Source of the DNA: Acidimicrobiia bacterium
GTDB taxonomy: Bacteria > Actinomycetota > Acidimicrobiia > Spongiisociales > ZC4RG35
DNA length: 64,000 nt
Assembly: GCA_036525795.1 (NCBI GenBank)
Contig: DATCZS010000123.1
Coordinates: 10,717-74,716 of the forward strand
Direction: 5' to 3'
Shown here: positions 30,236 through 45,477 of the stretch, piece after piece
How the letters are laid out: each line of letters begins with the position of its first letter
How positions within the stretch are numbered: position 1 is the stretch's first letter
Translations under genes and position numbers: made by a program
Notes under the pieces: model-generated
The model's input: only the letters and a program-made list of their open reading frames with translations
Databases searched by the model: none
What the model was told of the DNA's origin: nothing

Positions 30236-30265
30236 GCCGCCAGATGCCGGCCCGCCGGGCCCGCC

Positions 30266-32584
30266 TCAGAGCGCCATCCCCGCCTCCCGCAGCGCCCGCC
30301 ACACCCGCTCGGCGGTGAAGGGGGTCTCGGTCAGCCACACTCCGGTTGCGTCGTGGACGGCGTTGGCGATGGTGGGAATCGGGGCGTTGATGCCGATCTC
30401 GGAAATCGACTTCGCCCCCATCGGGCCGGTCGGCTCGAACGACTCGACGAGGACCACCCGCAGCGGGGGCATGTCGACGGTGCTGGGGATCTTGTACCGG
30501 GCGAAATCGGGCGTTCGGCACCGGCCGCTGTCGGTGAACACCATCTCCTCCATCAGGGCATAGCCGATCCCGTTGGCGATCGCCCCTTCCACCTGACCCT
30601 CGGCCAGGCGGGGGTTCACCGCCGTCCCGCAGTCGACCGCCGCCACGAAGTCGGCGATCTCCAGCCTGCCGGTGCGCAGGTCCACCCCCACCTCGGCGAA
30701 GCTCGCCAGGAACGGCGGCGGCGACAGTTCGGGCAGGAACGACGCCATCGCCCCGATCTGGCGCTGGTCCTCGCCGTACAGGCTGCGCAGCGCCACCTCC
30801 GAGAGGGTGACGCTCTCCCCCTCGGGGATCCCCACCCGCTCGTCGACCAGCTCGAGGTCTGCGGGATCGGCCTCCAGCATCGCCGCGGCCGCCTCCCTGA
30901 TCTGGACGGCGACCTGGCGCGCCGCCCGCTCGACCGCCATCCCCGAGACGTAGGTCGTCGACGAGGCGTATGCCCCGGTGTCGAACGGCGTCAGGTCGGT
31001 GTCGGATGACAGCACCACGATCTTCTCCAGCGGCACCCCCAGGACCTCGGCGGCGATCTGGGCCAGGATCGTGTCCGAACCGGTCCCGAGATCGGTGGCA
31101 CCGACCGCAAGGTTGAAGGAGCCGTCGTCGTTCATCTTGAGGTTCGCCGACCCCATGTCGATCATCGGGATCCCCGACCCCTGCATGTGGATCGACATCC
31201 CGACCCCGTACACGACGTCGCCCTCCCGCCGCCTGCTCCCCCGCTTCGCCGACCAGCCGATGTGATCGGCCCCGACGCGGATGCACTCGTCGAGAACGCA
31301 GGAGGTGATGGTCTGATCGACGCCTTCCCGTCCTTCCCCGAGCGCCCGGAACATGGGCGAGGTCTCGCCGCTGCGCACGTGGTTGATCCGCCGCAGCTCC
31401 AGGGCGTCCATCCCGATCGCTTCGGCCAGGCGGTCGATCGCCGTCTCGAGCGGGAAGTACCCCTGGGTGGCCCCGTACCCGCGATAAGCGCCGCCCACCG
31501 GGAGGTTGGTGTACACGGCCTCGCCCCAGAACCGGACGTGGGCCGCCTTGTTGTACAGGGGGAGCGTCTTCGAACCGACGTTGGACAGAACGGTCAGGGC
31601 GTGGGTGCCGTAGGCGCCGGTGTTGGACAGCACGTCCATGCCGATGGCGTTGATCTTCCCGTCGCGCGTGGCTCCGAGCCGGACCCTGATCCGCATGGGA
31701 TGGCGCGTCCGCGACGACACGAACTCCTCTTCCCGGTCGAACTCGAGCACGGCGGGACGTCCCGTGCGATGGGTCACCATCGCCACCAGGTCCTCGATGA
31801 GGATCTCCTGTTTCACTCCGAAGCCCCCGCCGATGCGCGGCTTCACGACCCGAATCCGGTGGACCGGGACCTCGAGAAGGCCGGCGACGATCCGCCTCAC
31901 GTGGAAGGGAACCTGGGTCGACGACACGATGACGAGCCGCTCCTCGGTGTCGAGGTAGCTCGTGGCCACGTGGGTCTCGAGCGGAGCGTGCTGGCCGTAG
32001 TGGGTCTCGCAGGTGACGTCCACCACCGCGTCCGCCTCGGCCAGGCCGGTTTCGATGTCTCCCGAAGTGGCCACCACGTGTGACGCACAGTTCCGCTCGG
32101 CGGCCCACACGTCCAATGCGTCGGTCTCGTCGTGGATCACCGGGGCGCCGTCGGCGACGGCCTGGTCGATGGACAGCACCGGCTCGAGCATCTCGTACTC
32201 GACTTCGATCGCCTGACAGGCTTCGCGTGCCGTCTCCGGCGAGTCGGCGGCCACCGCCGCCACCCGGTCGCCTACGAAGCGCACCTTGGTGTCGAACATG
32301 CGGGCGTCATAAGGAGACGGCTCGGGATACCCCTGTCCGGCGGTGGTGTATCGCCTGGAGGGAGTGTTCATGTGCGTGAGCACCAGGGCCACACCCTGCA
32401 TCTCCTCGGCCGCCGACACGTCGATCGACCTGATGCGGGCGTGGGCGTGGGGGCTCCTCAGCAGCGCAACGTGGAGGAGGCCCTGGCGTTCGGTCATGTC
32501 TGCGACGAACACCGGCCGGCCGGTGGCCAGTGCCCGGCCGTCCACCCGGCGCTCGCTCTGGCCGACGACCGCGTACTTCCCCAT
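30266..32584 (-). CDS. Xanthine dehydrogenase-family molybdopterin-binding large subunit (set 1)
   Basis: GGGFGVK and AYRGYGATQ motifs. 772 aa starting MGKYAVVGQ, whose ATG overlaps the stop of the 2Fe-2S subunit gene. Confidence 0.85.
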   Translation of the reverse strand: MGKYAVVGQSERRVDGRALATGRPVFVADMTERQGLLHVALLRSPHAHARIRSIDVSAAEEMQGVALVLTHMNTPSRRYTTAGQGYPEPSPYDARMFDTKVRFVGDRVAAVAADSPETAREACQAIEVEYEMLEPVLSIDQAVADGAPVIHDETDALDVWAAERNCASHVVATSGDIETGLAEADAVVDVTCETHYGQHAPLETHVATSYLDTEERLVIVSSTQVPFHVRRIVAGLLEVPVHRIRVVKPRIGGGFGVKQEILIEDLVAMVTHRTGRPAVLEFDREEEFVSSRTRHPMRIRVRLGATRDGKINAIGMDVLSNTGAYGTHALTVLSNVGSKTLPLYNKAAHVRFWGEAVYTNLPVGGAYRGYGATQGYFPLETAIDRLAEAIGMDALELRRINHVRSGETSPMFRALGEGREGVDQTITSCVLDECIRVGADHIGWSAKRGSRRREGDVVYGVGMSIHMQGSGIPMIDMGSANLKMNDDGSFNLAVGATDLGTGSDTILAQIAAEVLGVPLEKIVVLSSDTDLTPFDTGAYASSTTYVSGMAVERAARQVAVQIREAAAAMLEADPADLELVDERVGIPEGESVTLSEVALRSLYGEDQRQIGAMASFLPELSPPPFLASFAEVGVDLRTGRLEIADFVAAVDCGTAVNPRLAEGQVEGAIANGIGYALMEEMVFTDSGRCRTPDFARYKIPSTVDMPPLRVVLVESFEPTGPMGAKSISEIGINAPIPTIANAVHDATGVWLTETPFTAERVWRALREAGMAL

Positions 32585-33054
32585 CAGGCCCCACCCCCTT
32601 CGATGCGTTCGGCGGCGAGAAGGACGCCCTCGACGATCTTGACGTAGCCGGTGCAGCGGCACAGGTTCCCGGCCAGAGCCTCTCGCACCTCGCGTTCGGT
32701 TGGATGTGGAACGCGATCGAGCAGCTCGGCCGCCGTCAGGATGATCCCGGGGGTGCAGAACCCGCATTGGATCCCGCCGGTGTCGAGCAGCGCCGACTGC
32801 AGCGGATGCAGCCCTTCGTCGCCCGCCAGTGATTCGACCGTCGTCACCCGGCGACCATCGACCTGGGCGGCGAACAGCAAACACGAGGTCACGGCCCGGC
32901 CGTCGACCAGCACCGCACACGTCCCGCAGTCGCCGTGGGCACACCCGTTCTTGACCCCGGCGAAGCCGCGCTCGCGCAACATCTCCATGAGCGTGGCACC
33001 CGGATGCACCTCGGCCTCGATGGCCAGTCCGTTGACCGTCAGCGAGATCCTCAT
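32584..33054 (-). CDS. Xanthine dehydrogenase-family (2Fe-2S)-binding small subunit (set 1)
   Basis: Plant-type ferredoxin Cys cluster CAHGDCGTC plus QCGFCTPG and CRCTGY. Confidence 0.88.
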   Translation of the reverse strand: MRISLTVNGLAIEAEVHPGATLMEMLRERGFAGVKNGCAHGDCGTCAVLVDGRAVTSCLLFAAQVDGRRVTTVESLAGDEGLHPLQSALLDTGGIQCGFCTPGIILTAAELLDRVPHPTEREVREALAGNLCRCTGYVKIVEGVLLAAERIEGGGA

Positions 33055-33896
33055 GCGCCACCTCCCAGCCGGTCCCTTGCCACCCTCAGGCACCGGTCGA
33101 CGAGGGTGACCGCCAGATGCGATCGGTATTCGGCCGAGGCGGTCCAGCTGGAATGGGTGGGGAGGTCGCCCGCCAGCCTGGCGGCATCCGCAATCGCCTC
33201 GTCGTCGAGGGTCGATCCGACCAGCCTGCCGGCGGCCTCGGCCAGCACCCGGGCGACACCGGGGCCGGCCCCGACGGCGAGCCTCGCCTCGTCGACGATG
33301 CCGTCGACGGCCCGCACGCGACAGGCCGTGTTGGCGAGGGCGTGGTCGAAACCCGAGCGCGAGAACCGCAGAAATGCGGCCACCTCCTCCGCCGGCGGAG
33401 GGAGGAACACGGCGGTGACGACGTGAAGCGTGTCGTGCACCGAGTCGTGGTAGTAGGAGTCGAGCGGCAGCCGGCGGGTCTGCCCGTCGAAGACCTCGAT
33501 CTCGGCATCGAGGGCCAGCAGGACGGGAACCACATCCGACAGGTACCCCCGGGCGAGATGACCGCCGATGGTTGCGGCGTTGCGCAACAGCGGCGATCCG
33601 ACCTGCACGAGCATCTCGGGGATCACCCCCGAGGCCATCCGGCGGAGCTCGGGGTGCTCGAGCATTCCGGTGAGCGTCGCCATCGCCCCGATCCGGATCG
33701 TTCCGTCGCTCTCGACGTCGATCCCCTCGATACCCAGATGCGACAGGTCCACCAGCACTCGCACCTCGGCCGGACAGTGGATCGTCAGGTCGGTGCCCCC
33801 TCCCACGAGCCTCACCTGAGGGCCTTCCTGCAGGAGATGCCACACCTGCATGATCCGGTCCGGGCGGTGGAAGGCGCGGATCTGACTCACCGGCAT
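33051..33896 (-). CDS. Xanthine dehydrogenase-family FAD-binding subunit (set 1)
   Basis: CoxM/XdhB-like FAD-binding domain (LVGGGTDL, AATIGG), 281 aa. Confidence 0.8.
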   Translation of the reverse strand: MPVSQIRAFHRPDRIMQVWHLLQEGPQVRLVGGGTDLTIHCPAEVRVLVDLSHLGIEGIDVESDGTIRIGAMATLTGMLEHPELRRMASGVIPEMLVQVGSPLLRNAATIGGHLARGYLSDVVPVLLALDAEIEVFDGQTRRLPLDSYYHDSVHDTLHVVTAVFLPPPAEEVAAFLRFSRSGFDHALANTACRVRAVDGIVDEARLAVGAGPGVARVLAEAAGRLVGSTLDDEAIADAARLAGDLPTHSSWTASAEYRSHLAVTLVDRCLRVARDRLGGGA

Positions 33897-33899
33897 CGT

Positions 33900-35387
33900 T
33901 CATCCTCCTCGCACACGCCGATTGAACTCGCCGATCAGATGGTCGATCTCGTCGACCTGACCCTGCACGGTGGTCCAGTAGTCGGGGTCGTGCCACTGGG
34001 CGTCGAGCTCGGCCGTCTCGCGCCCCTGCTGCTCGATCCACGTGAAGTACTTGAGATCGTGGATGCGTCTGCGGTCCCAGTGATCGAGCTCCCGCATGTG
34101 ATCCGTGCTCAGACCCATCACCCAACGACCATATGCCACCTCGGCATCGGTGGCGGTGAATTCCCCGCGGTCGGCGTTCATCTCGGCGAGCCTGCTCCGG
34201 TACATGTCGATGGAATCCGTCGCCATCGTCAGGACCACGTCGGTCGGGCCGAGCTCGAACCACCGTGCGAACTTGATGGCGCCGATCAGGTTGGCCACCG
34301 ACGAGATCCCCAGCTCGGGCAGCCGGGCGATCACCTCGTCGCCGACACCGTGACTCGCGAGGCACTCGACGCCGGCAGGCTCGTTGAACAGCCGGACCAG
34401 CGACATCGGACCTTCGTCGTCGATGGCGATCACGACGTCGGTGTTCTTGACGTTGTGGATCCAGGGCACGTGCTTGTCGCCGATGCCCTCGATCCGATGG
34501 TCGCCGTGTCCCGAATAGAGGAGGGTCGGACACTGGAGGGCCTCACCGGCGGCGATCAGCGATCCCGGCCAGCGTTGCTTGAGCCGGTCACCCGATCCGA
34601 TCGTGCCGGCCGAACCGGTCGTCAGCACCACCCCCCGGTAGCGGTCACCGGGGCGCATCGCCTCCTCGACCACCTCGATCATGGCGCTCCCCGTGACCTC
34701 GTAGTGCCACAGGTAGTTCCCCAGTTCGTCGAACTGGTTGAAGATCACGACGTCCTCCCCGGAGACCCGCATCCGGTTGCACTCGTCGAAGATCTCCTTC
34801 ACGTTGGACTCGGTGCCCGGGGTGGTCACGATCTCTCCCGCCACCGACTCGAGCCAGTCGAATCGCTCCCGGCTCATGCCTTCGGGAAGAATCGCGACGG
34901 ACTCGCACGCCAGCAGATTCGCGTCGTACGCCCCGCCCCGGCAGTAGTTGCCGGTCGACGGCCACACCGACTTCTGACTCGTCGGATCGAACTGCCCCGT
35001 CACGAGCCGGGGAACCAGACAGCCGAAGGCGGCGCCCACCTTGTGGGCGCCCGTGGGGAACCACTTGCCGACCAGGGTGATGATCCTCGCATCCACCCCG
35101 GTGAGAGAGGGGGGAAACTCGATGGTGTTGACCGGCCCGAACGCGCCGCCGGTGGCGACCGGCTCGTTGTGCCAGTTGATGCGGAACAGGTTGAGCGGAT
35201 CCAGATCCCACAAGCCCAGTCCACCCAGCCTCCCGGTCACCTCTGGCGGAATCGACGCGGGGTCGCGCATCTGCTCGAACGTCGGGACCACGATGTCGCG
35301 TTCGCCTGCCCGCCGGACGGCACGGTCGAGTGCGTCGGGTCTGATCGTCAGGTCGATCCCCCGGTTCCATCGGGCGGCGGCGGTCAT
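33900..35387 (-). CDS. PLP-dependent fold-type II enzyme (Trp-synthase-beta-like, GAHK lysine motif), specificity unknown
   Basis: 495 aa. PTGAHKVGAAF resembles the TrpB HTGAHK PLP-lysine region, and a Gly-rich GSAGTIGSG loop is present. Its ATG overlaps the stop of the upstream threonine-synthase-like gene. Confidence 0.6.
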   Translation of the reverse strand: MTAAARWNRGIDLTIRPDALDRAVRRAGERDIVVPTFEQMRDPASIPPEVTGRLGGLGLWDLDPLNLFRINWHNEPVATGGAFGPVNTIEFPPSLTGVDARIITLVGKWFPTGAHKVGAAFGCLVPRLVTGQFDPTSQKSVWPSTGNYCRGGAYDANLLACESVAILPEGMSRERFDWLESVAGEIVTTPGTESNVKEIFDECNRMRVSGEDVVIFNQFDELGNYLWHYEVTGSAMIEVVEEAMRPGDRYRGVVLTTGSAGTIGSGDRLKQRWPGSLIAAGEALQCPTLLYSGHGDHRIEGIGDKHVPWIHNVKNTDVVIAIDDEGPMSLVRLFNEPAGVECLASHGVGDEVIARLPELGISSVANLIGAIKFARWFELGPTDVVLTMATDSIDMYRSRLAEMNADRGEFTATDAEVAYGRWVMGLSTDHMRELDHWDRRRIHDLKYFTWIEQQGRETAELDAQWHDPDYWTTVQGQVDEIDHLIGEFNRRVRGG

Positions 35388-36655
35388 GGGTGTCCTCCTG
35401 TCGTCGTTCCGAACACCGCCTCCACCGCGTCGAGGCGGGGACTCACGTGGTGGGCGACGTCTCCGGCGGCCTCCACTGCCCGGATCGCGGCGGGAACGTC
35501 CTTGAGTCCGGTGCCGGTGCTGACCAGCACGATGCGGTCGCGATTCAACACGAGCCCCATTGCGGCCGCCCGCACCAGCCCGGCGTATGCCGCCGCCGCG
35601 GCCGGCTCGGCGAACACCCCCGAGGCCCTGGCCAGGAGCGGGATGGAGGCAAGGATCTCCTCGTCGGTGACCGTGACGAACGCCCCGTCGGTGTCGTGCA
35701 CCGCCCGCATCGCCTTGAGCCGGTCCCTCGGCAGCCCGGCCGAGATCGAGTCGGCGACCGTGTGGGCGGCGATCGCCGGTTTGGTGAGGACGTCCTCTCC
35801 CCGGCGCCACGCCTCGGCGAGGAACGCCGAGCCCTCTGCCTGCACGCCGATCAGCCGGGGGACGTGGGTGATCCATCCCAGGGCGACGAGGTCGCGAAAG
35901 CCCTTGTGCAGGCCGCCGATGATGCACCCGTCCCCCACGGAGACGAAGACCACGTCGGGTGCCTGCCAGCCGAGTTGCTCGACGATCTCCACCGCCGCCG
36001 TCTTCTTGCCCTCCGACATGTACGGGTTGAAGCCGGTCGTGCGGTTGTACCACCCGAAGCGGTCCGCCGCCTGGAGGCACAGCTCCACCGCGTCGTCGTA
36101 CGAGCCGTCCACGAGCAGCACGGTCGAGCCGTATGCCAGCAGTTGCGCCACCTTGGCCTGGGGGGCGTCCGCCGGAACGAAGATCACGTTGGGTTGCTTC
36201 ACGGAGGCGCACACCCCGGCGAGGGCGGCTGCGGCGTTCCCGGTGGAAGCGGTCGTGACGACCGACGCGCCCCGTTCGGTGGCCTTCACCACCGCCACGG
36301 CACTCGCCCGGTCCTTGAGCGACCCCGTGGGCTGGACTCCCTCGTCCTTGACCCACACGTCCCGGAGACCGAGGCTCGCTGCGAGCCTCGGCGTCTCGTA
36401 CAGGGGAGTCCACCCGACCCTGAGCGGAGGCACCGCAGAGGCCTGTCCGATGGGCAGCAGAGCCCGGTACCGCCACATCGACTCGATCCCCGATTGCGCC
36501 ACTCCGCCGCGGCTGAAGCCTGACTCGATGCGGTCGTAGTCGTAGGCCACGTCGAGGGTCCCGTCTGCGCCGTGGTCGGGACACACGTAGTCCACTTCAT
36601 CTGCGGCGTAGCGCGATCCGCAGATCATGCAGTCGAGCCCCAGCACGTGGTTCAT
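35384..36655 (-). CDS. Threonine synthase-like PLP enzyme with an N-terminal Zn-ribbon
   Basis: CxxC...C N-terminus (CMICGSRYAADEVDYVCPDHG) and a SLKDR PLP-lysine motif. 423 aa after trimming to MNHVLG. Confidence 0.7.
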   Translation of the reverse strand: MNHVLGLDCMICGSRYAADEVDYVCPDHGADGTLDVAYDYDRIESGFSRGGVAQSGIESMWRYRALLPIGQASAVPPLRVGWTPLYETPRLAASLGLRDVWVKDEGVQPTGSLKDRASAVAVVKATERGASVVTTASTGNAAAALAGVCASVKQPNVIFVPADAPQAKVAQLLAYGSTVLLVDGSYDDAVELCLQAADRFGWYNRTTGFNPYMSEGKKTAAVEIVEQLGWQAPDVVFVSVGDGCIIGGLHKGFRDLVALGWITHVPRLIGVQAEGSAFLAEAWRRGEDVLTKPAIAAHTVADSISAGLPRDRLKAMRAVHDTDGAFVTVTDEEILASIPLLARASGVFAEPAAAAAYAGLVRAAAMGLVLNRDRIVLVSTGTGLKDVPAAIRAVEAAGDVAHHVSPRLDAVEAVFGTTTGGHP

Positions 36656-36674
36656 GCCGGCTCCTTCGCCCGTC

Positions 36675-37622
36675 TCATGGCGTGATCCGCGTCCCGGTGT
36701 GGCCGGCCAGGGCTCTGTCGATCTGATCGGGACTGGTGATGATGGCCTGAGACCCCCCGCCTTCCAGGAAGTCGACGACCGCCTCGATCTTGGGGGCCAT
36801 GCTTCCCGGACGGAAGTGCCGCCCTTCCGCCAGGCGACGCTTCGCCTCGTCGAGGGTGAGGTGGTCGACCCACCGCTGATCGGGGGTCCCGAAGTCGAGC
36901 GCAACGCGTTCCACCGAGGTCGAGATCAACAGGAGGTCTGCGGCGATCTCCCTGGCGAGCAAGGCAGAGGCCCGGTCTTTGTCGATCACGGCCGGAACTC
37001 CCCGCAGGTTGCCTGCCCCGTCGGACACGACCGGAATGCCGCCGCCCCCACAGGCGATCACCACGAACCCGCCGTCGAGAAGGAACCGGATCGCCTCGAT
37101 CTCCACGATTCTCATCGGCAGCGGAGATGCGACCACGCGCCGCCATCCCCGCCCCGCGTCCTCCACCACCTCCCAGCCGTCCATCCGGGCCCTCGTCTCG
37201 GCCTCTTGGGCCGTCAGGAACGAGCCGATCGGCTTGGACGGCAGACGGAAGGCCGGATCGTCCGGGTCGACCTCCACCTGGGTGACGACGGTGACGGCCT
37301 CCTTGGCGATGCCAAGACGCCGAAAGTCACCGACCAGGTTCTGCTGAAGCAGATAGCCGATCGCCCCTTGTGTGTCCGCCCCGCACACGTCGAGCGGCAC
37401 CTCGTGCAGCTCGTTGCGCGCCAGTTCCGAGCGGCGCAGGATGAATCCGATCTGGGGCCCGTTGCCGTGGGTGATCACCACCTCACATCCGTGGGCAACG
37501 AGATTGGCGATGTGATGATCCGTCTCGGCCGCGGCCAGGTACTGGTCCTCGACCGTCTGGTGCTCCGGATCGGTGATGAGGCTGTTGCCTCCGATCGCCA
37601 CCACCACCCGCTGATGTTCCAT
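36675..37622 (-). CDS. arcC: Carbamate kinase
   Basis: MEHQRVVVAIGGN N-terminus and an amino-acid-kinase fold of 315 aa with GGGGIPVV. Confidence 0.85.
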   Translation of the reverse strand: MEHQRVVVAIGGNSLITDPEHQTVEDQYLAAAETDHHIANLVAHGCEVVITHGNGPQIGFILRRSELARNELHEVPLDVCGADTQGAIGYLLQQNLVGDFRRLGIAKEAVTVVTQVEVDPDDPAFRLPSKPIGSFLTAQEAETRARMDGWEVVEDAGRGWRRVVASPLPMRIVEIEAIRFLLDGGFVVIACGGGGIPVVSDGAGNLRGVPAVIDKDRASALLAREIAADLLLISTSVERVALDFGTPDQRWVDHLTLDEAKRRLAEGRHFRPGSMAPKIEAVVDFLEGGGSQAIITSPDQIDRALAGHTGTRITP

Positions 37623-37681
37623 CTCCTCGCTCGCTCCCTCCTCTTCTCCGACACCCGACACCGCCCGCCTCCGGAGCGGGC

Positions 37682-38656
37682 TCACATGGTGAGGGCCATC
37701 ACGGCCTTCTGGACGTGGAGGCGGTTCTCCGCCTGGTCGTAGACGGCGCTCTGCGGGCCGTCGATCACGGTGTCGGTCACCTCGATGTTGCGGTCGGCGG
37801 GCAGCGGGTGCATGTAGATCGCGCCCGGGTCGGCCAGCGCCATCCGCTCCGTGTCGGTGATCCAGTCCTGGTATCTCGCACCGATCGCGGCGGACTCGGC
37901 CTCGTCGGCGGTGGCGAGCATCGCTCCCCACGACTTGGCGTAGACGACGTCTGCGCCCCGCATCCCCGCTGCGAAGTCCTCCACGACCTCGAACCCCCCT
38001 CCTGCCCGTTTGGCGTTCTCGGCCGCCTGATCCATGACGTCGTCCATGAGCGCGAACTCGGGAGGCCGGGTGAGGCGCACATCCATTCCGAACCGCGTGG
38101 CGAGGAGGATCAGGCTCTGCGGCACCGAGAGCGGCTTCTGGTAGCTGGAGGCGTACGCATAGCTGACGTCCAGCGTCACCCGGCGGGGATCCCCCTTCTT
38201 CTCGATGATCGTCATCAGGTCGGCCAGCGCCTGGAACGGATGGAACCAATCGCACTGCATGTTGAGGACCGGGACGCGCGACGCCGCCGCCACGTCCCGG
38301 ATGTACCCGTTTCCCACCCCCCAGTCGACCTGTCGTATGGCGATGCCGTCGTTGTAACGGCCGAGGATCTCTCCGATCTCCTTGGCGGTGTCGCCATGAG
38401 CGATCTGGGTCGTCTTCGACTCGATGAACTGGGCGTGACCGCCCAGCTGTGCCATGCCCGCCTCGAAGCTGGCCCTCGTCCGCGTCGACGAGAAGAAGAA
38501 CAGCATTGCGAGCACCTTGTCACGAAGGATCGGGTGGGCCTCGCCGAGAGCCCTCCGGCGCTTGAGATCGAATGCCACCTCCAGAACCGAGTCGAGCTCG
38601 TCCTTGGTCCACTCCTGGGTGGTGATCATGTCGCGCCCGCGCAAGCCGGTCTGCAT
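37682..38656 (-). CDS. YgeW-type carbamoyltransferase (unknown-substrate branch of the OTC/ATC superfamily)
   Basis: STRTR, HPFQ and HPLP motifs. Extended identity to E. coli YgeW segments from memory (SYQKPLSVPQ...TRFGMDV, VVYAKSWG, YMHPLPAD). Confidence 0.75.
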   Translation of the reverse strand: MQTGLRGRDMITTQEWTKDELDSVLEVAFDLKRRRALGEAHPILRDKVLAMLFFFSSTRTRASFEAGMAQLGGHAQFIESKTTQIAHGDTAKEIGEILGRYNDGIAIRQVDWGVGNGYIRDVAAASRVPVLNMQCDWFHPFQALADLMTIIEKKGDPRRVTLDVSYAYASSYQKPLSVPQSLILLATRFGMDVRLTRPPEFALMDDVMDQAAENAKRAGGGFEVVEDFAAGMRGADVVYAKSWGAMLATADEAESAAIGARYQDWITDTERMALADPGAIYMHPLPADRNIEVTDTVIDGPQSAVYDQAENRLHVQKAVMALTM

Positions 38657-38664
38657 CGCTCACC

Positions 38665-39621
38665 TCACTCCATCGCGCCCATGATCAGGGCGAGGAGGCC
38701 CATTCGCATGACGACCCCGTAGTACGCCTCCTGCCAGTAGCGGGCGTGCCGGGTGGCATCGACGTCCGGGGGAAGCTCGTCCATCCGCGGGAGCGAATGG
38801 AGGATGATCGAGTGGCTCTGGGCCTTCTCGGAGAGGAGTGCCCGCGTGACCCGATAGTTGTCCGGGGTGTTCCCCACCGAGCCGTCGCCGCGTTCTTCGC
38901 GGCTCGCCGTGTAATCGGCCTGGACGACCGGCTCCATGTAGATGACGTCGGCTTCTCCGATGGCATCGGCCACGTGCTCGGCCCGCTCGATCCGCACGTT
39001 GAGGGCGTCCATCTCGGCCAGGAACTCCTCGGTCGGCCCCATGTCGTCGGGACACACATAGATGATCTTCGAGTCGAACTGGCTCATCGCGTAGCCGAGA
39101 GAATGCATCGTGCGCATGCGCCAGTCGCCGACCGCCAGGAAGGTGAGCCCGTCGACCGTGCCCAGTTCCCGGCGTGTCGTGTACAGGTCGGTGAGCACCT
39201 GGGTGGGATGCTCTCCCCACCCGTCCCCTCCGTTGATCACGGGAACACTCGACCAGCGGGCGGCTTCGTGAGGCGCTCCCTGCTGGAAATGGCGCATCAC
39301 GATCGCATCCCCGTAGAACTCGAGCATGTGGACGGTGTCCTTGATCGACTCCTGGTAGAAGTCGCCTGCCCTGGTCATCTTCGGGTCGGCGAACCCGCAC
39401 ACGTGCCCGCCCAGCCGGTGCATCGCCGCCTCGTGGGCAAGGCGGGTCCGGGTGGATGGCTGATAGAAGGCGGTGACCAGCGTCTTCTCGGCGAGCAGAT
39501 CCGTGTTCCGCCGTTCCCGCGCGATCGGCTCGAGCTCGTCGCACGCCTCGAAGACGTGTTCGAACTCGGCCCGCTCGAAGCCGTTCAGCGACAGGATGTC
39601 CCGCCCGGCGAAGCTCCTCAT
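38665..39621 (-). CDS. Aspartate-carbamoyltransferase-like (PyrB-like) carbamoyltransferase
   Basis: STRTR, HPTQ and HSLPR motifs; 318 aa. It sits in a catabolic gene context rather than a pyr operon. Confidence 0.7.
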   Translation of the reverse strand: MRSFAGRDILSLNGFERAEFEHVFEACDELEPIARERRNTDLLAEKTLVTAFYQPSTRTRLAHEAAMHRLGGHVCGFADPKMTRAGDFYQESIKDTVHMLEFYGDAIVMRHFQQGAPHEAARWSSVPVINGGDGWGEHPTQVLTDLYTTRRELGTVDGLTFLAVGDWRMRTMHSLGYAMSQFDSKIIYVCPDDMGPTEEFLAEMDALNVRIERAEHVADAIGEADVIYMEPVVQADYTASREERGDGSVGNTPDNYRVTRALLSEKAQSHSIILHSLPRMDELPPDVDATRHARYWQEAYYGVVMRMGLLALIMGAME

Positions 39622-39766
39622 GATCCTCCCTCAACTGTCTCCGCGAACAAGGGTTTGCCCGCCGAAGCGGGCCATCAACACAGGCTGCGCAATCGCTGGC
39701 CCACCGGGTAGAGACGAACGGCCACAACCCCTGGGCCCCTGACCTCTCTGCGGTCGCCGGCCGAAT

Positions 39767-40615
39767 GTGACGCTTGACCCCGCAACCGGGGACCTGTTGG
39801 GAGTAGGTTCCCTTGCGATGGACATCGCCAGACCGAGGGGCCTCGACGAGGCCCTGGCCGCCCTCGCCGCCTCTCCCTCAGCGACGTTGCTGGCGGGAGG
39901 AACCGACCTGATGGTCGACGTCAACCTCGCGCACCGCCGCCCTGAAGAGGTGATCGCACTCCGCAGGGTGCCCGAACTGGCCGAGATGGCCCCTGCGTTC
40001 ATCGGGGCGGGGGTCACGTTTGCCCGCCTGGAGGGCTCGCCCCATGCCGCCCTCGCCGAACTCGCCCGCACGGTCGGGTCGCCGCAGATCCGGGCGGCGG
40101 GCACCATCGGGGGGAACCTGGGCACGGCCAGCCCGGCCGGCGACTCGCTGCCCTGGCTGGCGGCGCTCGACGCCACCGTCGTGCTCGCCTCGGTCGACGG
40201 TGAGCGCCGGGCGAGATGGGACGAGTTCTTCGTCGGCCCCAAGCGGACGGCGAGGCGCCCCGGCGAGTTGATCGTCGGCGTCGAACTGCCGGATCGCCGC
40301 CCCGTGCGCGAGGCGTTTGCGAAGGTCGGGATACGCCAGGCGATGGTCATCGCCACCGTGTCGTGCTGTGTGGCCCGATTCGACGACGGCGAGATCCGGG
40401 TGGCGCTCGGAGCCGTCGGACCCACCGTGCTCCGTGCCCGGCGGGCAGAGGCCTTCCTCGCCGACCGGGCCATCACATCAGACGAGGACCTCGCCGCCTT
40501 CGCCCGAATGGTCGCAGACGAAGTCCGGCCGATCACAGACCACCGATCGACGGAGGCCTACCGCCGCCACGCGGCAGGGGTGATCGCCCGGCGAACACTG
40601 GAGCGAGTGATGTGA
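39767..40615 (+). CDS. Xanthine dehydrogenase-family FAD-binding subunit (set 2)
   Basis: LLAGGTDL and GTIGGNL motifs. The true start may be the internal Met. Confidence 0.8.
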   Translation: MTLDPATGDLLGVGSLAMDIARPRGLDEALAALAASPSATLLAGGTDLMVDVNLAHRRPEEVIALRRVPELAEMAPAFIGAGVTFARLEGSPHAALAELARTVGSPQIRAAGTIGGNLGTASPAGDSLPWLAALDATVVLASVDGERRARWDEFFVGPKRTARRPGELIVGVELPDRRPVREAFAKVGIRQAMVIATVSCCVARFDDGEIRVALGAVGPTVLRARRAEAFLADRAITSDEDLAAFARMVADEVRPITDHRSTEAYRRHAAGVIARRTLERVM

Positions 40616-41082
40616 TCATCGAACTCACCGTCAACGGGGAACGGAGGTCCGTCCAGGTGGACGGCTGGGAGAGCCTCCTGTGGGTGCTGCGTGAGCAGCT
40701 CGGTCTGCCCGGATCCAAGCCTGCCTGCGAGCAGGGTGAGTGCGGAGCCTGCTCGGTGATCCTGGACGGCGACCTGGTGTGCAGCTGTCTCGTGATGGCC
40801 GCGGACGCCGAAGCCGGCACGGTCGTCACCGTGGAAGGCCTCGGGACCGCAGAGGACCTGCATCCGGTGCAGGCGGCGTTTCACGCCCACGGCGCGGTGC
40901 AGTGCGGGTTCTGCACGCCCGGGCTGGTCGTCGCCGCCGCCCACCTGCTCGAGCATGCCAGGAACCCTTCGATGGAGGACATCCGCGAGGCGCTGTCAGG
41001 CAACATCTGTCGATGCACCGGGTACGGCTCGGTGCTCAGGGCGGTCGCCTCGGTCGTCGCCGACCGGGAGGAGACGCCGTGA
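40612..41082 (+). CDS. Xanthine dehydrogenase-family (2Fe-2S)-binding subunit (set 2)
   Basis: GTG start overlapping the upstream stop (GTGA). Motifs CEQGECGAC, QCGFCTPG and CRCTGY. Confidence 0.85.
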   Translation: MIIELTVNGERRSVQVDGWESLLWVLREQLGLPGSKPACEQGECGACSVILDGDLVCSCLVMAADAEAGTVVTVEGLGTAEDLHPVQAAFHAHGAVQCGFCTPGLVVAAAHLLEHARNPSMEDIREALSGNICRCTGYGSVLRAVASVVADREETP

Positions 41083-43304
41083 CCACGTCGGTCGGCGAGC
41101 GGCGAAAGGTGTCCGGCGGGGTCGGCGAGCCGGTGCTCCGACCAGATGGCATCCCCAAGGTCACCGGGGCCTTCGAGTATGTGAACGACCTCCATGCGGA
41201 CGGGATGCTGTGGGCCGTGACGCGTCGGGCACACGCCGCTCACGCCCGCATCGTCCGCCTCGACACCACTGCGGCGAGGACCATGCCGGGGGTTGTCGAC
41301 GTCATCACCGTCGACGACGTGGCCGGTCACCGCTATCAGGGCCAGATCGTCACCGACCAGCCCGTGCTCGCCGAAGCCGAGATCCGCCATTGGGGTGAGG
41401 CGGTGGCGGTGGTGGCCGCCGAGACACGGGAACAGGCGCGGCGGGCCGCCGAGGCGATAGATCTCGAACTCGAGGCCCTGCCCGCCGTCACCGACCTCGA
41501 GGCCGCGCTCGAGCAGGGGGCGATCTTCCGGGCGATCACGGTCCGTCACGGCGACCAGGACCGCCACGGCGAGGTGGTGGTGGAAGGACGCTACGAGGTG
41601 GGGATCCAGGACCAGGCCCCGCTGGGGACCGAGGCGGGGCTGGCCGTTCCGGACGGCGTCGGTGGTGTCGACGTCTGGGGTCCCACCCAGTGGACACACG
41701 TCGACCGCCGTCAACTCGCGGCCTGTCTCGGCCTCGACGAGTCGGCGGTCCGCGTCCACTCGGTGGGCCTGGGCGGAGCGTTTGGCGCCCGCGAGGATCT
41801 CTCGGTCCAGACCCACCTGGCCATGCTCGCCCTCCGCACGGGACGTCCGGTCAAGATGGCGTTCGACCGCACCGAGAGCTTCGCCGCCCACGTCAAGCGA
41901 CACGGAGCGGTGATGGAGTACCGCCACGAGGCAGACGCCGACGGGACGCTGGTGCGGGTCGACGCCCGGCTGCTGCTCGATTCGGGGGCCTACCACATGA
42001 CCTCCGACGCCGTGATCGCCAACTCCGCCTACTTCGCGGTCGGCCCCTACCGCTGTGAGACCACCTCCGTCGACGCCTGGGCACTGCGCACCAACCATCC
42101 ACCCGCTGGAGCCATGCGCGGGTTCGGGGCCAACCAGCCGTGCTTCGCGGCCGAGGCCCAGATGGACCGCCTTGCAGCCGCCCTCGGAATGGATCCGGTC
42201 GAACTGCGCCTGCGCAACGCCTTGGGCCGTGGAGACACCCTCCCGACCACCGGCCAGCTCATCGAATACCCGCTCCCCACCGCCGAGGTGATCCGCTCGG
42301 TGGCCGCCATCCCGCTACCCGACCCCGAGGACCGGAGCGACGTACGCCTCCTCCCTGGAGGCACGGGCCGGACCACCGGCCGCGGCCACGTCCGGCGCGG
42401 CGTGGGCTACGCCGTCGGCATCAAGAACCTCGAGTTCTCGGAGGGTTTCGACGACTTCGCCGAGGCCGAAGTCGAGCTCACCGCCGCAGGGGCGGTGATC
42501 CACACCGCCGCCATCGAGGTCGGTCAGGGCCTGGTGACCGCCCTCACCCAGATCGCCCGGTCGGCGCTTGGCATCGAGTCGGTGACCGTGGACTTCGACC
42601 ACACGGGCCGGATCGGGTCGGCCGGATCGACGTCGGCATCCCGTCAAACCCAGATGAGCGGCGGTGCCGTGCTGCGGGCGGCGCAGGCGGTGCGGGCGGC
42701 CGTCCTCGACCGCCACGGCGCCGACGACCTCACAGACGAAGGCGTGTGGCGGAACGGGGAGCTGGTGGCATCGCTCGCCGCCGTCGTCGGCGACGGTCCG
42801 GTCGCCGAGCGAGTGCGGTTCAGGCACCCCGGGACCGATACCCCAGACGAGTTCGGACAGGGCAAGCTCCACGTCGACTTCTGCGTTGCGGCCCACAGGG
42901 CGATCGTCGACGTCGACCCCGAGCTCGGGCTGGTGCGGGTGGTACGAATCGACACCGCCCAGGACGTCGGCCGGGCGCTCAACCCCCTCTCCGTGCTCGG
43001 CCAGATCGAAGGCGGCATCGCCCAGGGCATGGGCCTGGCCATCATGGAGGAGCTGGTCGTCGACGGCGGCATCGTCCGCAACCCCACGTTCACCGACTAC
43101 CTGCTGCCCACCACCCTCGACATGCCAGACGTCGAGGCGGTGCTGGTCGAGGAACCCAGCCCCTGGGGGCCGTTCGGGGCCAAGGGTTTCGCCGAGCTCC
43201 CGACCGTCTCATCGACGCCGGCGGTGGTGGCGGCGCTGCGGGCCGCCACGGGCATGGCGCTGAACCGGGTGCCGGTTCGACCCCAGGACATCGTCGGTCT
43301 CTGA
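41079..43304 (+). CDS. Xanthine dehydrogenase-family molybdopterin-binding subunit (set 2)
   Basis: GTG start overlapping the upstream stop. GGAFGARE and AMRGFGANQ motifs; about 741 aa. Confidence 0.82.
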   Translation: MTTSVGERRKVSGGVGEPVLRPDGIPKVTGAFEYVNDLHADGMLWAVTRRAHAAHARIVRLDTTAARTMPGVVDVITVDDVAGHRYQGQIVTDQPVLAEAEIRHWGEAVAVVAAETREQARRAAEAIDLELEALPAVTDLEAALEQGAIFRAITVRHGDQDRHGEVVVEGRYEVGIQDQAPLGTEAGLAVPDGVGGVDVWGPTQWTHVDRRQLAACLGLDESAVRVHSVGLGGAFGAREDLSVQTHLAMLALRTGRPVKMAFDRTESFAAHVKRHGAVMEYRHEADADGTLVRVDARLLLDSGAYHMTSDAVIANSAYFAVGPYRCETTSVDAWALRTNHPPAGAMRGFGANQPCFAAEAQMDRLAAALGMDPVELRLRNALGRGDTLPTTGQLIEYPLPTAEVIRSVAAIPLPDPEDRSDVRLLPGGTGRTTGRGHVRRGVGYAVGIKNLEFSEGFDDFAEAEVELTAAGAVIHTAAIEVGQGLVTALTQIARSALGIESVTVDFDHTGRIGSAGSTSASRQTQMSGGAVLRAAQAVRAAVLDRHGADDLTDEGVWRNGELVASLAAVVGDGPVAERVRFRHPGTDTPDEFGQGKLHVDFCVAAHRAIVDVDPELGLVRVVRIDTAQDVGRALNPLSVLGQIEGGIAQGMGLAIMEELVVDGGIVRNPTFTDYLLPTTLDMPDVEAVLVEEPSPWGPFGAKGFAELPTVSSTPAVVAALRAATGMALNRVPVRPQDIVGL

Positions 43305-43319
43305 GCGAAAGGATCCGCA

Positions 43320-44528
43320 TTGGATTTCTCGATCACGCCCGAACTGCACGAGACGCTGCGCGCGGTCCGCGAGTTCATCGACAGAGAGGTGATCCCCCTC
43401 GAGGCCCGGCTCCTGACCGAGGGGTTCGAGGCGACGGCGGGGGACCTGGGGCATCTGAGGGAGCGGGCGAAGACCCTGGGACTGTGGGCCCCTGCCATCC
43501 CCCGCGAGGCGGGCGGAGCCGGACTGGGGCTGATCGACTTCGCCCATCTCAGTGAAGAACTGGGGCGGACGCCGGCCGGCCACTACGTGTTCAACGCCCA
43601 GGCGCCCGACATCGGCAACATGGAGCTGCTGCTGCGCCACGGGTCCGATGCGCAGCGTCGCCGATGGCTCGAGCCCCTCGTGGCCGGCGAGATCCGGAGC
43701 TGTTTCTCGATGACCGAGCCGGGGCGGGCCGGGTCGAACCCCGCCTGGCTCTCTGCCACCGCCGAACGGGACGGCGACCAGTACGTGCTCAACGGCGACA
43801 AGTGGTTCACCTCGGCCGCCGACGGGGCCGCCTTCACCATCGCCATGATGGTCACGAACCCCCAGGCGGAGAGCCGCTACGCCCGCGCCAGCCAGATCAT
43901 CGTCCCCACCGACACTCCCGGGTTCACCCGCGTTCGCAACACCCCGGTGATGGGCGAGGCGGGTTCTGGTTGGGCCAGCCACTCCGAGGTGAGCTTCACC
44001 GACTGTCGGGTCCCGGTCACCAACCGGATCGGCGATGAGGGCGCCGGATTCGTCCTCGCCCAGGAGCGCCTGGGCCCGGGTCGCATCCACCACTGCATGC
44101 GATGGCTGGGCATCTGCGAACGGTCGCTCGACCTGATGTGCGAGTACGCGGTCAATCGGGAGCTGGCGCCGGGCCGGCCACTGGCGGATCAGCAGGTGGT
44201 GCAGCACTGGATCGCCGACAGCCGGACCGAGATCGACGCCGCCCGGCTCATGGTGCTGCGTGCCGCATGGAAGATCGAGCGGGAAGGCAACCACGCCGCC
44301 CGCACCGAGGTCTCGCAGATCAAGTTCTTCGTGGCCAACACGCTCCAGCGGGTGATCGACCGGGCGCTCCAGGTGCACGGCGGCATGGGGATGACCGACT
44401 ACACGCCGCTGGCGTGGTGGTACCGGCACGAACGGGCCGCCCGGATCTACGACGGCGCCGACGAGGTCCACCGCAACGTCGTCGCCCGTCACGAGCTCGG
44501 CAGGCACGGGTACGGGCGGAAGAGCTGA
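43320..44528 (+). CDS. Acyl-CoA dehydrogenase family protein
   Basis: ACAD fold of 402 aa with C-terminal YDGADEVHR. Confidence 0.75.
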   Translation: MDFSITPELHETLRAVREFIDREVIPLEARLLTEGFEATAGDLGHLRERAKTLGLWAPAIPREAGGAGLGLIDFAHLSEELGRTPAGHYVFNAQAPDIGNMELLLRHGSDAQRRRWLEPLVAGEIRSCFSMTEPGRAGSNPAWLSATAERDGDQYVLNGDKWFTSAADGAAFTIAMMVTNPQAESRYARASQIIVPTDTPGFTRVRNTPVMGEAGSGWASHSEVSFTDCRVPVTNRIGDEGAGFVLAQERLGPGRIHHCMRWLGICERSLDLMCEYAVNRELAPGRPLADQQVVQHWIADSRTEIDAARLMVLRAAWKIEREGNHAARTEVSQIKFFVANTLQRVIDRALQVHGGMGMTDYTPLAWWYRHERAARIYDGADEVHRNVVARHELGRHGYGRKS

Positions 44529-44532
44529 ACCG

Positions 44533-45477
44533 GTGCCGATTCCCCTCCTGTTGCTCCTCGCCCTGCCTGCGTCCGGCAAGTCGGAGCTCCGCCGCTATCT
44601 CGACCTGCTGGACGAGCACGACCGTCTCGAGCTGGGGCTGGGACCCACCGTGCAGCTCGACGACTACCCGTACGTGGCGCTGATGCGGGCGATCTCCCGG
44701 AGATTGCTGGCCGGCGGGCGCCACCCGGTGTTCTTCGCCTCGGACGATCTGCCGTTCGCCGACCCGCGGGATTGGCTCACGCTGATCCACCTGCTCAACG
44801 AGGACCACCAATCGGTCGTCCAGGGAGCGACACTGCCAGACGATCCGGGCCGGTGGATCCTCGACCGTCTGGACAGGGCCCGGACCCTCGCCGGGGCTCC
44901 GGCCCTGACCGATGGGCTCCCCGGAGACGCAACGGCTGTCCTGGTCGACGCGTGCAGGTCGCCAGGATCCGACATCGCCGCCGCCCTCGTCAGCCGGCGA
45001 TGCACCGAGGGTTCGACGATCGTCGTGGAATTCGCCCGGGGTGGCCCCCGGGGCTCGGCGATGCCGCTCCCCCATCCCCACGGGTACGTTCACTCGCTCG
45101 CCGCGCTCTCGCCGGCGATCCTCGACCACGCCGCGGCCCTCTACATCCGGGTTACCCCCGAACAGAGCCGCGCGAAGAACCTGGAGCGGGCGCGCCCGGA
45201 CGGCGAAGGATCGATTCTCCACCACGGCGTACCCGAGACCGTCATGGACCGCGACTACGGCACCGACGACTTCGTCTGGCTGCTCGAGACGTCCGATCGG
45301 CGCGGCACGATCCGCATCGAGAGGGACGAACGCGCCTTTCGCCTGCCCGCCGCAGTGTTCGACAACCGGGAGGACCTCACGACCTTCCTGCGCGACGACC
45401 CTGAGACCTGGCCTGCGGAAATGGTGACAGCACTGCATGCCAGGCTGCGGGCGGCACTCGCAGCCCTTCGGCCGTGA
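44533..45477 (+). CDS. Hypothetical P-loop protein (Walker A-like ALPASGKS)
   Basis: The N-terminus LLLALPASGKSELRRYL resembles kinase P-loops. 314 aa, no family assigned. Confidence 0.4.
   Translation: MPIPLLLLLALPASGKSELRRYLDLLDEHDRLELGLGPTVQLDDYPYVALMRAISRRLLAGGRHPVFFASDDLPFADPRDWLTLIHLLNEDHQSVVQGATLPDDPGRWILDRLDRARTLAGAPALTDGLPGDATAVLVDACRSPGSDIAAALVSRRCTEGSTIVVEFARGGPRGSAMPLPHPHGYVHSLAALSPAILDHAAALYIRVTPEQSRAKNLERARPDGEGSILHHGVPETVMDRDYGTDDFVWLLETSDRRGTIRIERDERAFRLPAAVFDNREDLTTFLRDDPETWPAEMVTALHARLRAALAALRP

Follow-up and report, generated by a model that had tools for sequence, protein, structure and literature searches.

Two carbamoyltransferases and a carbamate kinase in an Acidimicrobiia purine-degradation locus: candidate energy-conserving end of a reductive urate pathway variant

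Two different carbamoyltransferase genes, followed directly by a gene for carbamate kinase, lie on the minus strand of a 64,000-nucleotide stretch of DNA from an Acidimicrobiia bacterium [GenBank: DATCZS010000123.1, positions 10,717 to 74,716], here called the window. The first encodes a relative of aspartate carbamoyltransferase (ATCase) and the second a relative of the Escherichia coli carbamoyltransferase YgeW; these are referred to below as CTase-A and CTase-B. We consider it fairly probable that this trio conserves energy at the end of a modified reductive urate (2,8-dioxopurine) pathway, in which both ureido groups would be phosphorolysed and two ATP would be formed. The pathway itself is already known, and CTase-A belongs to a family that had been described earlier without an assigned function.

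The urate cluster of E. coli and Clostridium was resolved in 2025 (Li et al., PMC12507026; Liu et al., bioRxiv 10.1101/2025.04.24.650524). In this pathway urate is reduced to 2,8-dioxopurine by XdhD, further reduction and ring opening are the work of YgfK and SsnA, and HyuA generates 2,3-diureidopropionate. YgeW then phosphorolyses one ureido group, YgeY hydrolyses the other, and YgeX converts the resulting 2,3-diaminopropionate to pyruvate. With ADP and Mg, E. coli YgeW and YqeA made ATP from 2,3-diureidopropionate in vitro. The group attacked by YgeW is disputed, being the 2-ureido group according to Li et al. (PMC12507026) and the 3-ureido group according to Liu et al. (10.1101/2025.04.24.650524), and a commentary lists the question as open. 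An ATCase-like partner is mentioned in neither paper, and Li et al. (PMC12507026) scored 'YgeW' in gene neighbourhoods simply as PF00185. In the literature library that was searched, no paper was found that connects the CTase-A family with the 2,8-dioxopurine pathway or puts forward a double phosphorolysis. The window had previously been interpreted, from its letters alone, as encoding ring reduction, ring opening, phosphorolysis and ATP formation in that order. The core of this interpretation agrees with all the evidence; as a whole it is supported in part, being outdated or imprecise on some points. The general scheme anticipated the real pathway, including the formation of ATP through carbamate kinase, although the route is that of urate and not the pyrimidine route of PreA and dihydropyrimidinase which had been envisaged. 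The accompanying remark that the substrate of YgeW is unsettled has been outdated since 2025, as only the regiochemistry is still disputed.

The carbamoyltransferases and the carbamate kinase

What this analysis shows directly is the identity of the genes, the layout of the operon, the patterns of residues, the conservation of synteny and the displacement of genes. The G+C content of the window is about 69%, because of which raw lists of open reading frames are full of spurious frames, and the real genes were picked out by the GC content of their third codon positions. Three successive minus-strand reading frames, with third-position GC of 0.87–0.90, occupy positions 36675–39621 exactly, in agreement with the three consecutive genes of the original prediction. 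CTase-A (38665–39621, 318 amino acids) is separated by 8 nt from CTase-B (37682–38656, 324 amino acids), which in turn lies about 20–60 nt from a carbamate kinase of the YqeA/ArcC type (36675–37622). The ATG of the kinase gene at 37622 is preceded by a GGAGG-rich stretch; in public gene calls the protein begins instead at 37661 and has 328 amino acids. The trio belongs to an eight-gene minus-strand operon that starts with CTase-A and ends with the molybdopterin subunit of an XdhD-like enzyme. There are ATGA-type overlaps at three of its junctions, and no terminator-like site was found on the minus strand from 39621 to 30266.

CTase-A contains the OTCace_N (E = 2.6e-43) and OTCace (E = 7.4e-24) domains and the motifs STRTR, HPTQ and HSLPR, which had been quoted correctly in the original prediction. 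The resemblance behind its description as 'PyrB-like' is also real, in that its identity to E. coli PyrB is 36% and, among solved structures, the Pyrococcus ATCase matches it best. It scores below both ATCase equivalog cut-offs (TIGR00670, 231.6 vs 236.95; NF002032, 205.5 vs 263). A scan of species-representative genomes with peptide patterns of CTase-A hit 583 relatives or more; the locus set used here consists of the 80 best, which are 72–85% identical. In all 80 orthologues the carbamoyl-phosphate-site residues S52, T53, R54, T55, R105, H134, Q137, L267 and P268 are retained together with R167 (E. coli numbering), and STRTR, HPTQ, HSLPR and R110 (CTase-A numbering) are invariant. Equally invariant across the 80 are the replacements of K83 by D, K84 by Y, Q133 by E, T228 by E, R229 by P and P266 by S. 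The aspartate motif RxQxxER is gone, and the 240s loop has become EPVVQxDYT with an 8-residue insertion. From this pattern CTase-A looks catalytically competent, with an altered site for the second substrate.

A pseudo-ATCase group with these properties has been described by Barba et al. (2013, PMC4016543), from a single genome at that time and without a proposed function. The gene for its member in Nocardioides sp. JS614, A1SH59, adjoins a ygeW homologue, xdhABC and hyuA. CTase-A is 64% identical to A1SH59 and has in common with it the signature stretches KMTRAG.FYQES, GDGWGEHPTQ, IYMEPVVQADYT and HSLPR. Like that group, it falls in the ATCase branch with archaeal ATCases as its nearest relatives, has HSLP in place of HPLP and lacks RxQ; its gene, too, is found close to a YgeW-like gene and has genes of the xanthine dehydrogenase (XDH) family on either side. 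The motif rows of Table 1 in that paper (HPLA, H[ST]LP and HSLP) disagree with the subgroup numbers in its text, where the Nocardioides type is 'subgroup 2', and with its tree labels. By the tree labels, HPLA belongs to the marine group, HTLP/HSLP to the Rubrobacter/Clostridium group and HSLP to Nocardioides. Because of this conflict Table 1 was dropped, and CTase-A was placed by the supplementary alignment and tree labels of PMC4016543. By these sequence criteria CTase-A is a pseudo-ATCase of the Nocardioides type and not PyrB, so that the gene first described as PyrB-like belongs to a group already noted in 2013 beside a ygeW homologue. Known from one genome in 2013, the family is now represented in at least 583 species-representative genomes, and its set of partner genes is consistent in the loci compared. 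In a library of 50%-identity cluster representatives it consists of two full-length clusters, 70–72% identical to the query, beyond which similarity is at most 49%, to other ATCase-like proteins that are likewise without TRxQ.

In CTase-B the OTCace_N and OTCace domains are again present (E = 1.3e-38 and 1.1e-37), and the protein is about 25–28% identical to CTase-A. Aligned with E. coli YgeW over residues 14–396 it has 34% identity, with signature stretches in common; the earlier label 'YgeW-type' holds for segments of the protein only. At 324 amino acids it is 72 shorter than YgeW (396), and it does not reach the YgeW equivalog models TIGR03316 (175.2 vs 500) and NF005538 (185 vs 453). The N- and C-terminal helices of YgeW and the two extra helices of its 240s loop are alignment gaps in CTase-B, which accounts for these low scores. 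CTase-B lies under every NCBIfam cut-off, and its top scores are to models of ornithine carbamoyltransferase (OTCase) and N-acetylornithine carbamoyltransferase (AOTCase), with 261.1 vs 306, 251.8 vs 280.85 and 250 vs 288 bits. The sequence signature given by Shi et al. (2015) for the knotted class (AOTCase, SOTCase and the YgeW-encoded YTCase) is present, comprising a proline-rich loop, YQKPLSVPQ, and an extended 120s loop, IR-QVDWGVGNGY, which align with the corresponding loops of YgeW and AOTCase. CTase-B carries YAKSWGA(M) and HPLP, and the ornithine motif DxxxSMG and HCLP are absent. The second-substrate residues of YgeW proposed by Shi et al. (2015) are Q98*, D124, Q160, S200, K203 and K270, with D334 and E344 in addition. 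Seven of these eight (Q98, Q160, S200, K203, K270, D334 and E344) are identical and invariant in all 62 CTase-B orthologues; the eighth, D124, is Q, H or N. The gene context is also that of YgeW, with carbamate kinase directly downstream and XdhD-, SsnA- and YgfK-like genes in the window. Judged by these comparisons CTase-B is a YgeW-like protein and not a YgeW equivalog.

The third gene is, by its model scores, a bona fide carbamate kinase, as had been claimed. It has a PF00696 domain, passes the cut-offs of TIGR00746 (369.1, cut-off 358.25) and NF009007 (388.6, cut-off 266), and is 49% identical to E. coli YqeA.

Conservation of the module and gene displacement

Over half of the 80 loci are from Chloroflexota (41, including the cultured Pelolinea submarina) and 19 are from Acidimicrobiia. 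The others are from Nitriliruptoria (7), other Actinomycetota (6) and Verrucomicrobiota (2), with five single loci that are labelled Atribacteria, Zixibacteria, Acidobacteriota, Gammaproteobacteria and, in one case, unclassified. CTase-A orthologues are 72–85% identical across Chloroflexota, Actinomycetota, Verrucomicrobiota and Atribacteria despite a range of GC content from 36% to 70%. Identity this high between phyla is unusual and points to lateral transfer of the module, to very strong constraint or to a combination of the two.

At least 8 kb of sequence is available on each side of CTase-A in 39 of these loci (the full-flank set). CTase-B is present in 37 of them and carbamate kinase in 36, followed by genes for an 8-oxoguanine-deaminase-like enzyme (28), a threonine-synthase-like (ThrC-like) enzyme (27), a cysteine-synthase-like (CysK-like) enzyme (19), XDH-family proteins (15), SsnA (8), YgeY (7), YgfK (6) and HyuA (4). 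In most Chloroflexota loci the 8-oxoguanine-deaminase-like homologue is directly upstream of CTase-A. Since these counts start from CTase-A, a reciprocal scan of metagenome contigs was seeded with CTase-B, which removes that bias. CTase-A is present in 42 of the 45 loci with flanks that were obtained. In the other three (L111, L114 and L158, two of which are near-duplicates) a YgeY homologue is directly upstream of CTase-B, in the slot usually taken by CTase-A, and the gene order is YgeY, CTase-B and then kinase or CysK-like gene. YgeY and CTase-A thus replace each other in place, and neither YgeY nor YgeX is encoded in the 64 kb of the window; both observations support the proposed variant. 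Neither HyuA nor YgeY gave a tblastn match at E ≤ 1e-5 in the window, the best relaxed hits being at E = 0.003 for HyuA and E = 0.18 for YgeY, and for YgeX there was only a partial match of 26% identity, to the ThrC-like gene.

The ThrC-like gene is the fourth of the operon (35384–36655, minus strand, 423 amino acids) and is followed by the CysK-like gene (33900–35387, minus strand, 495 amino acids), with one of the ATGA-type overlaps at their junction. Both encode putative pyridoxal phosphate (PLP) enzymes with a PALP domain (E = 3.8e-76 and 1.2e-10, respectively). The ThrC-like enzyme passes the NF006050 cut-off (306.4, cut-off 303) and has threonine synthases as its best solved relatives. 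The CysK-like enzyme is divergent, with 74 bits to the cysK model against a cut-off of 351, and its best solved relatives are cysteine synthases (E about 1e-13). Beyond the 27 full-flank loci already mentioned, the ThrC-like gene was found in 13 of 16 related loci, and the CysK-like gene is conserved along with the module. Two loci of Nitriliruptoraceae from soda-lake sediment (L008 and L014) have ygeX, 39–40% identical to that of E. coli, in the slot which in L007, L011, L021 and L026 holds the ThrC-like and CysK-like pair. Both transferases are present in L008 and L014, and there is no YgeY in the stretch that was fetched. The shared slot suggests that the pair does the job of a diaminopropionate ammonia-lyase, that is, that it may replace YgeX in the conversion of 2,3-diaminopropionate to pyruvate and ammonia.

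The cluster is complete in two other loci. In the Atribacteria locus L062 a single operon encodes HyuA-like protein, CTase-B, ThrC-like enzyme, an M20 peptidase, CysK-like enzyme, CTase-A, XDH, 8-oxoguanine-deaminase-like enzyme and SsnA, and a similar cluster in the Anaerolineae locus L065 combines HyuA-like protein, SsnA and XDH with both transferases. The locus of P. submarina MO-CFX1 (L022), a cultured strict anaerobe [GenBank: NZ_AP018437.1, 2567222–2588172], has a row of genes in one direction for two EamA transporters, 8-oxoguanine-deaminase-like enzyme, a GntR/UTRA regulator, CTase-A, CTase-B, kinase, an ABC transporter with BPD_transp_2 permeases, and ThrC-like enzyme. It is an evenly balanced question whether these loci represent a widespread variant, in Anaerolineae, Acidimicrobiia, Nitriliruptoria and Atribacteria, in which the ATCase-derived transferase would replace hydrolysis by YgeY and so give two ATP per purine ring.

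Proposed pathway and alternative readings

In the pathway that we propose, adenosine deaminase, an 8-oxoguanine-deaminase-like enzyme and a PucD-like xanthine dehydrogenase would funnel purines to urate. The XdhD-like enzyme encoded in the operon would convert urate to 2,8-dioxopurine, a YgfK-like reductase and an SsnA-like hydrolase would dearomatise and open the ring, and a hydantoinase not encoded in the window would produce 2,3-diureidopropionate. CTase-B, as the equivalent of YgeW, would then phosphorolyse the side-chain 3-ureido group and CTase-A the alpha 2-ureido group, in one order or the other. Each phosphorolysis would consume phosphate and release carbamoyl phosphate, from which carbamate kinase would form ATP, CO2 and NH3. 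The yield would be two ATP per urate, compared with one in E. coli, where YgeW works by phosphorolysis and YgeY by hydrolysis. Phosphorolysis is thermodynamically unfavourable (Li et al. 2025, PMC12507026), and for this reason co-transcription of the transferases with the kinase and the PLP enzymes makes sense, as removal of 2,3-diaminopropionate by the ThrC-like and CysK-like enzymes would pull the two reactions forward.

What we infer are the substrates and regiochemistry of both transferases, the yield of two ATP and the part played by the PLP enzymes. CTase-A is assigned to the 2-ureido group because enzymes of the ATCase branch use an alpha-amino group, because R167, which binds the alpha-carboxylate, is kept, and the positive residues for the beta-carboxylate are now neutral or acidic, which would suit a 3-amino or 3-ureido side chain; its residue pattern fits an N-carbamoyl-alpha-amino acid with a non-acidic side chain. 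CTase-B is assigned to the 3-ureido group because the enzymes of the OTCase branch and knotted class use side-chain amines, and because L-2,3-diaminopropionate carbamoyltransferase (DPTCase) links diaminopropionate with beta-ureidoalanine. By this analogy the assignment would agree with that of Liu et al.

Several known systems resemble parts of this proposal. As in the YgeW–YqeA step of E. coli, a transferase with the signature of the knotted class stands beside carbamate kinase, is linked to homologues of XdhD, YgfK and SsnA, and has the proposed YgeW substrate residues. Unlike in E. coli, there is a second, ATCase-derived transferase and no YgeY, the ThrC-like and CysK-like enzymes stand in for YgeX, CTase-B is shorter, YgfK is without its central domain and no HyuA is encoded in the window. 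In the arginine deiminase pathway the catabolic OTCase ArcB is run backwards and the carbamate kinase ArcC completes a substrate-level phosphorylation. That pathway is alike in coupling a reverse carbamoyltransferase to carbamate kinase, but has one transferase, one carbamoyl phosphate and citrulline as substrate, and the DxxxSMG of its transferase is absent here. DPTCase, an enzyme of the OTCase branch from zwittermicin and viomycin biosynthesis, interconverts 2,3-diaminopropionate plus carbamoyl phosphate and beta-ureidoalanine (albizziin), the reverse of the 3-ureido step proposed here. It is, however, anabolic and unknotted, and has the motifs HDLP and (T/S)RWQTTG, neither of which is present in CTase-B. 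The ureidoglycine carbamoyltransferase (UGTCase) of Rubrobacter xylanophilus (Rxyl_2847) is, by analogy, a precedent for a catabolic pseudo-ATCase. It is ATCase-derived, with H(S/T)LP and without RxQ, is encoded next to carbamate kinase in a purine-degradation cluster, and in vitro phosphorolysed one of the ureido groups of allantoate (diureidoacetate). It differs in the sequences of its 80s and 240s loops, in belonging to an oxidative pathway through uricase and allantoinase, and in having no YgeW-like partner.

A number of observations weigh against a doubly phosphorolytic pathway. In about eight loci of Chloroflexota YgeY accompanies both transferases, in two of Verrucomicrobiota YgeY and CTase-A are found without CTase-B, and L016 has CTase-A and the kinase only. 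These mixed combinations indicate that a scheme of one enzyme per ureido group is not universal, and they fit only if YgeY hydrolyses either mono-ureido isomer; such regio-flexibility is suggested by the two 2025 papers taken together (Li et al., PMC12507026; Liu et al., 10.1101/2025.04.24.650524). XDH, SsnA, YgfK or HyuA is found within 10 kb in only 18 of the 39 full-flank loci, and in many Chloroflexota the module is instead accompanied by genes for a GntR regulator, a transporter and an 8-oxoguanine-deaminase-like enzyme. Neither a hydantoinase of HyuA type nor a dihydropyrimidinase was found in the 64 kb, yet the closest relative, L002, has HyuA. The assignment of the 2-ureido group to E. 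coli YgeW by Li et al. would conflict with our regiochemistry. In its 240s loop CTase-A does not align unambiguously, and Arg241, which is kept in 78 of the 80 orthologues, could stand in for Arg229. The AlphaFold2 model of CTase-B has a mean pLDDT of 70.5, from a shallow alignment of 27 sequences that are 80–93% identical, and does not confirm the knotted fold structurally. In a Foldseek search of the PDB with this weak model, OTCase, PTCase and AOTCase, knotted and unknotted alike, rank equal (TM 0.65–0.71).

Do both transferases serve the urate pathway? Or, does only CTase-B do so, with CTase-A taking another ureido acid (allantoate, a hydantoin-derived N-carbamoyl-amino acid or carbamoyl-aspartate), the kinase being shared and the second ureido group left to a hydrolase encoded elsewhere? 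The latter is unlikely, though it is the alternative that fares best. The one characterised pseudo-ATCase, UGTCase, acts on allantoate, CTase-A is found without CTase-B in L015, L016 and L019, YgeY accompanies both transferases in the Chloroflexota loci noted above, and the window is only part of a genome. Against this, UGTCase is only 35.6% identical to CTase-A, which is no nearer to it than to true ATCases, and the specificity-loop motifs differ, with GCS in the 240s loop of UGTCase and PVV in that of CTase-A. CTase-B is also the immediate neighbour of CTase-A in most loci across several phyla, YgeY substitutes for CTase-A in place, and no allantoinase, uricase or allantoate-pathway gene was found in the operon or among the annotated neighbours.

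It is very improbable that the two transferases work as one unit, either as a mixed trimer or with one of them as a non-catalytic partner, to give one carbamoyl phosphate per substrate. The 8-nt gap, the near-constant co-occurrence and the location of carbamoyltransferase active sites at subunit interfaces would suit such an arrangement. However, in both proteins the residues that bind carbamoyl phosphate are complete and do not vary among orthologues, all known members of the family are homotrimers, each gene is found without the other, and the mutual identity of the two proteins is low.

We give next to no credence to CTase-A as an ordinary PyrB for pyrimidine synthesis, perhaps supplied with carbamoyl phosphate by CTase-B, a reading that has in its favour ATCase as the best family match, the name 'aspartate carbamoyltransferase' given to relatives in public databases, and the presence of STRTR, HPTQ and R167, and which was rejected because both equivalog cut-offs are missed, RxQxxER is lost, K83 and K84 are replaced throughout, no pyr genes are found near CTase-A, a canonical pyrB coexists with it in L076 and Barba et al. 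(PMC4016543) separate the group from genuine ATCases. The canonical pyrB of L076 (1016–1930) is 44% identical to E. coli PyrB, has TRxQxER, and lies 8 kb from CTase-A on a contig that carries both transferases. The L076 record is labelled Gammaproteobacteria; its gene content is like that of the Acidimicrobiia loci, so that the label of the bin is possibly wrong. Just as implausible is the reading of CTase-B and the kinase as ArcB and ArcC of an arginine-deiminase-type pathway, or of CTase-B as an anabolic OTCase or AOTCase, which is in line with its top model scores and with the names of its relatives in databases, and which was rejected because those scores are below the cut-offs, DxxxSMG is absent, HPLP stands for HCLP, the YgeW-specific residues are conserved, the partner genes are purine-catabolic, and no arginine deiminase or arg gene is among the annotated neighbours.

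If the doubly phosphorolytic pathway is correct, it would give a function to a family in at least 583 species-representative genomes that is labelled 'aspartate carbamoyltransferase' and whose partner bears the label 'ornithine' or 'N-acetylornithine carbamoyltransferase'. The ATP gained by anaerobes from the ureido groups of purines would be doubled, and the finding would extend the gut-bacterial urate pathway of 2025 to lineages of sediment, groundwater, soda lakes and soil, including the cultured P. submarina MO-CFX1. That an ATCase-branch enzyme for alpha-N is naturally paired with a YgeW-like one would argue that YgeW types attack the 3-ureido group, which bears on the 2025 dispute over regiochemistry, and a natural two-enzyme system would be a clean way into that question. 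Likewise, a fully phosphorolytic route might interest engineers of urate-degrading probiotics.

Purine-degradation genes in the operon and elsewhere in the window

A tblastn search with the E. coli ygeW–xdhD region matched XdhD, YgfM, YgfK, SsnA, YgeW and YqeA in the window; for YqeB and YqeC nothing credible was found in a relaxed search (E up to 10) of the window. The last three genes of the operon, all on the minus strand, encode the XdhD-like molybdenum enzyme. Its FAD subunit (33051–33896; FAD_binding_5 and CO_deh_flav_C domains) matches YgfM and XdhB, and overlaps in the ATGA manner with the gene of the [2Fe-2S] subunit (32584–33054; Fer2_2 and Fer2 domains), which aligns with XdhD residues 1–151. 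The molybdopterin subunit (30266–32584), a candidate urate to 2,8-dioxopurine reductase, is 41–43% identical to E. coli XdhD vs 36% to XdhA. It has a GEG insertion containing Glu606 of XdhD, the residue singled out by Li et al. (2025, PMC12507026) as a mark of XdhD vs XdhA. It scores 687 bits with TIGR03313 (cut-off 1101.9), and the XdhD-, YgfK- and SsnA-like proteins of the window are all under their equivalog cut-offs.

The region at 39622–39766 separates the operon from a divergent plus-strand operon for a second molybdenum hydroxylase (39767–43304; FAD, 2Fe-2S and PucD-like molybdenum subunits). From the score of its molybdenum subunit with TIGR03196 pucD (726.7 vs cut-off 783.65) this is a probable xanthine dehydrogenase supplying urate. 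No promoter-like site was found in a scan of 29900–40000, including no sigma-70-like promoter in the divergent region, and a terminator scan of the same interval gave one plus-strand terminator-like site, within chance expectation. No Rfam family was found in 39622–39766 and no purine, xanthine or other riboswitch in the whole window, whose sole Rfam match is a tRNA gene (8384–8456, minus strand). Behind the PucD-like enzyme, in the same direction, an acyl-CoA-dehydrogenase-like flavoprotein (402 amino acids) and a 314-amino-acid protein are encoded at 43320–45477 (plus strand). The latter (44533–45477) has no Pfam, NCBIfam or PDB match, and none of the 80 related genome loci encodes a counterpart of either protein.

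The 8-oxoguanine-deaminase-like amidohydrolase (45493–46866, minus strand) passes the NF006055 cut-off (673.4, cut-off 532), and adenosine deaminase (47549–48607, plus strand) that of NF006850 (514.1, cut-off 419). Between them the window has a 177-amino-acid 'adenosine-specific kinase' domain protein (PF04008; 46969–47502, minus strand); in L002 the corresponding slot, likewise flanked by genes for adenosine deaminase and 8-oxoguanine deaminase, is occupied by a HyuA homologue (2964–4334) with 42% identity to the E. coli protein. A short SsnA-like aminohydrolase of 341 amino acids (48610–49635, plus strand) begins 3 nt past the stop codon of adenosine deaminase. It scores 243.7 with NF005540 (cut-off 444), over profile positions 57–341, and by tblastn is 32% identical to E. 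coli SsnA (442 amino acids) over residues 37–438 with gaps. It is followed by a truncated-type YgfK-like reductase with Fer4 domains (49646–51454, plus strand; TIGR03315 424, cut-off 835.3), which is 40% identical to YgfK residues 5–405, the N-terminal catalytic part, and also matches residues 892–979, the C-terminal 4Fe-4S ferredoxin part. The central domain of E. coli YgfK, some 490 residues, is absent, which implies another electron donor, perhaps ferredoxin. YgfK is seemingly split over two genes in L064 and L067. The original prediction had placed a PreA-like reductase and dihydropyrimidinase-class amidohydrolases adjacent to the trio; they lie 6–10 kb off in other transcription units, and the amidohydrolases are of the SsnA/guanine-deaminase type, with no dihydropyrimidinase in the 64 kb.

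Further genes of the window include a 2-oxoacid:ferredoxin oxidoreductase pair at 56097–58978 and, on the opposite side of the operon, a nucleoside hydrolase and a ribokinase. At a distance of 11 kb from the cluster is the gene of an F420-dependent luciferase-like oxidoreductase (17683–19119, minus strand; TIGR03560 284.7, cut-off 231.4), which is extended by about 165 residues at its N terminus; according to a suggestion of Li et al. (2025, PMC12507026), YgfK is replaced in Chloroflexota by an F420-dependent member of that superfamily. The identical CTase-A protein and gene order are present on at least 10 contigs (L083–L086, from several ENA metagenome assemblies of the ZHEN15-1 series and one Logan run), which indicates that the organism has been sampled repeatedly.

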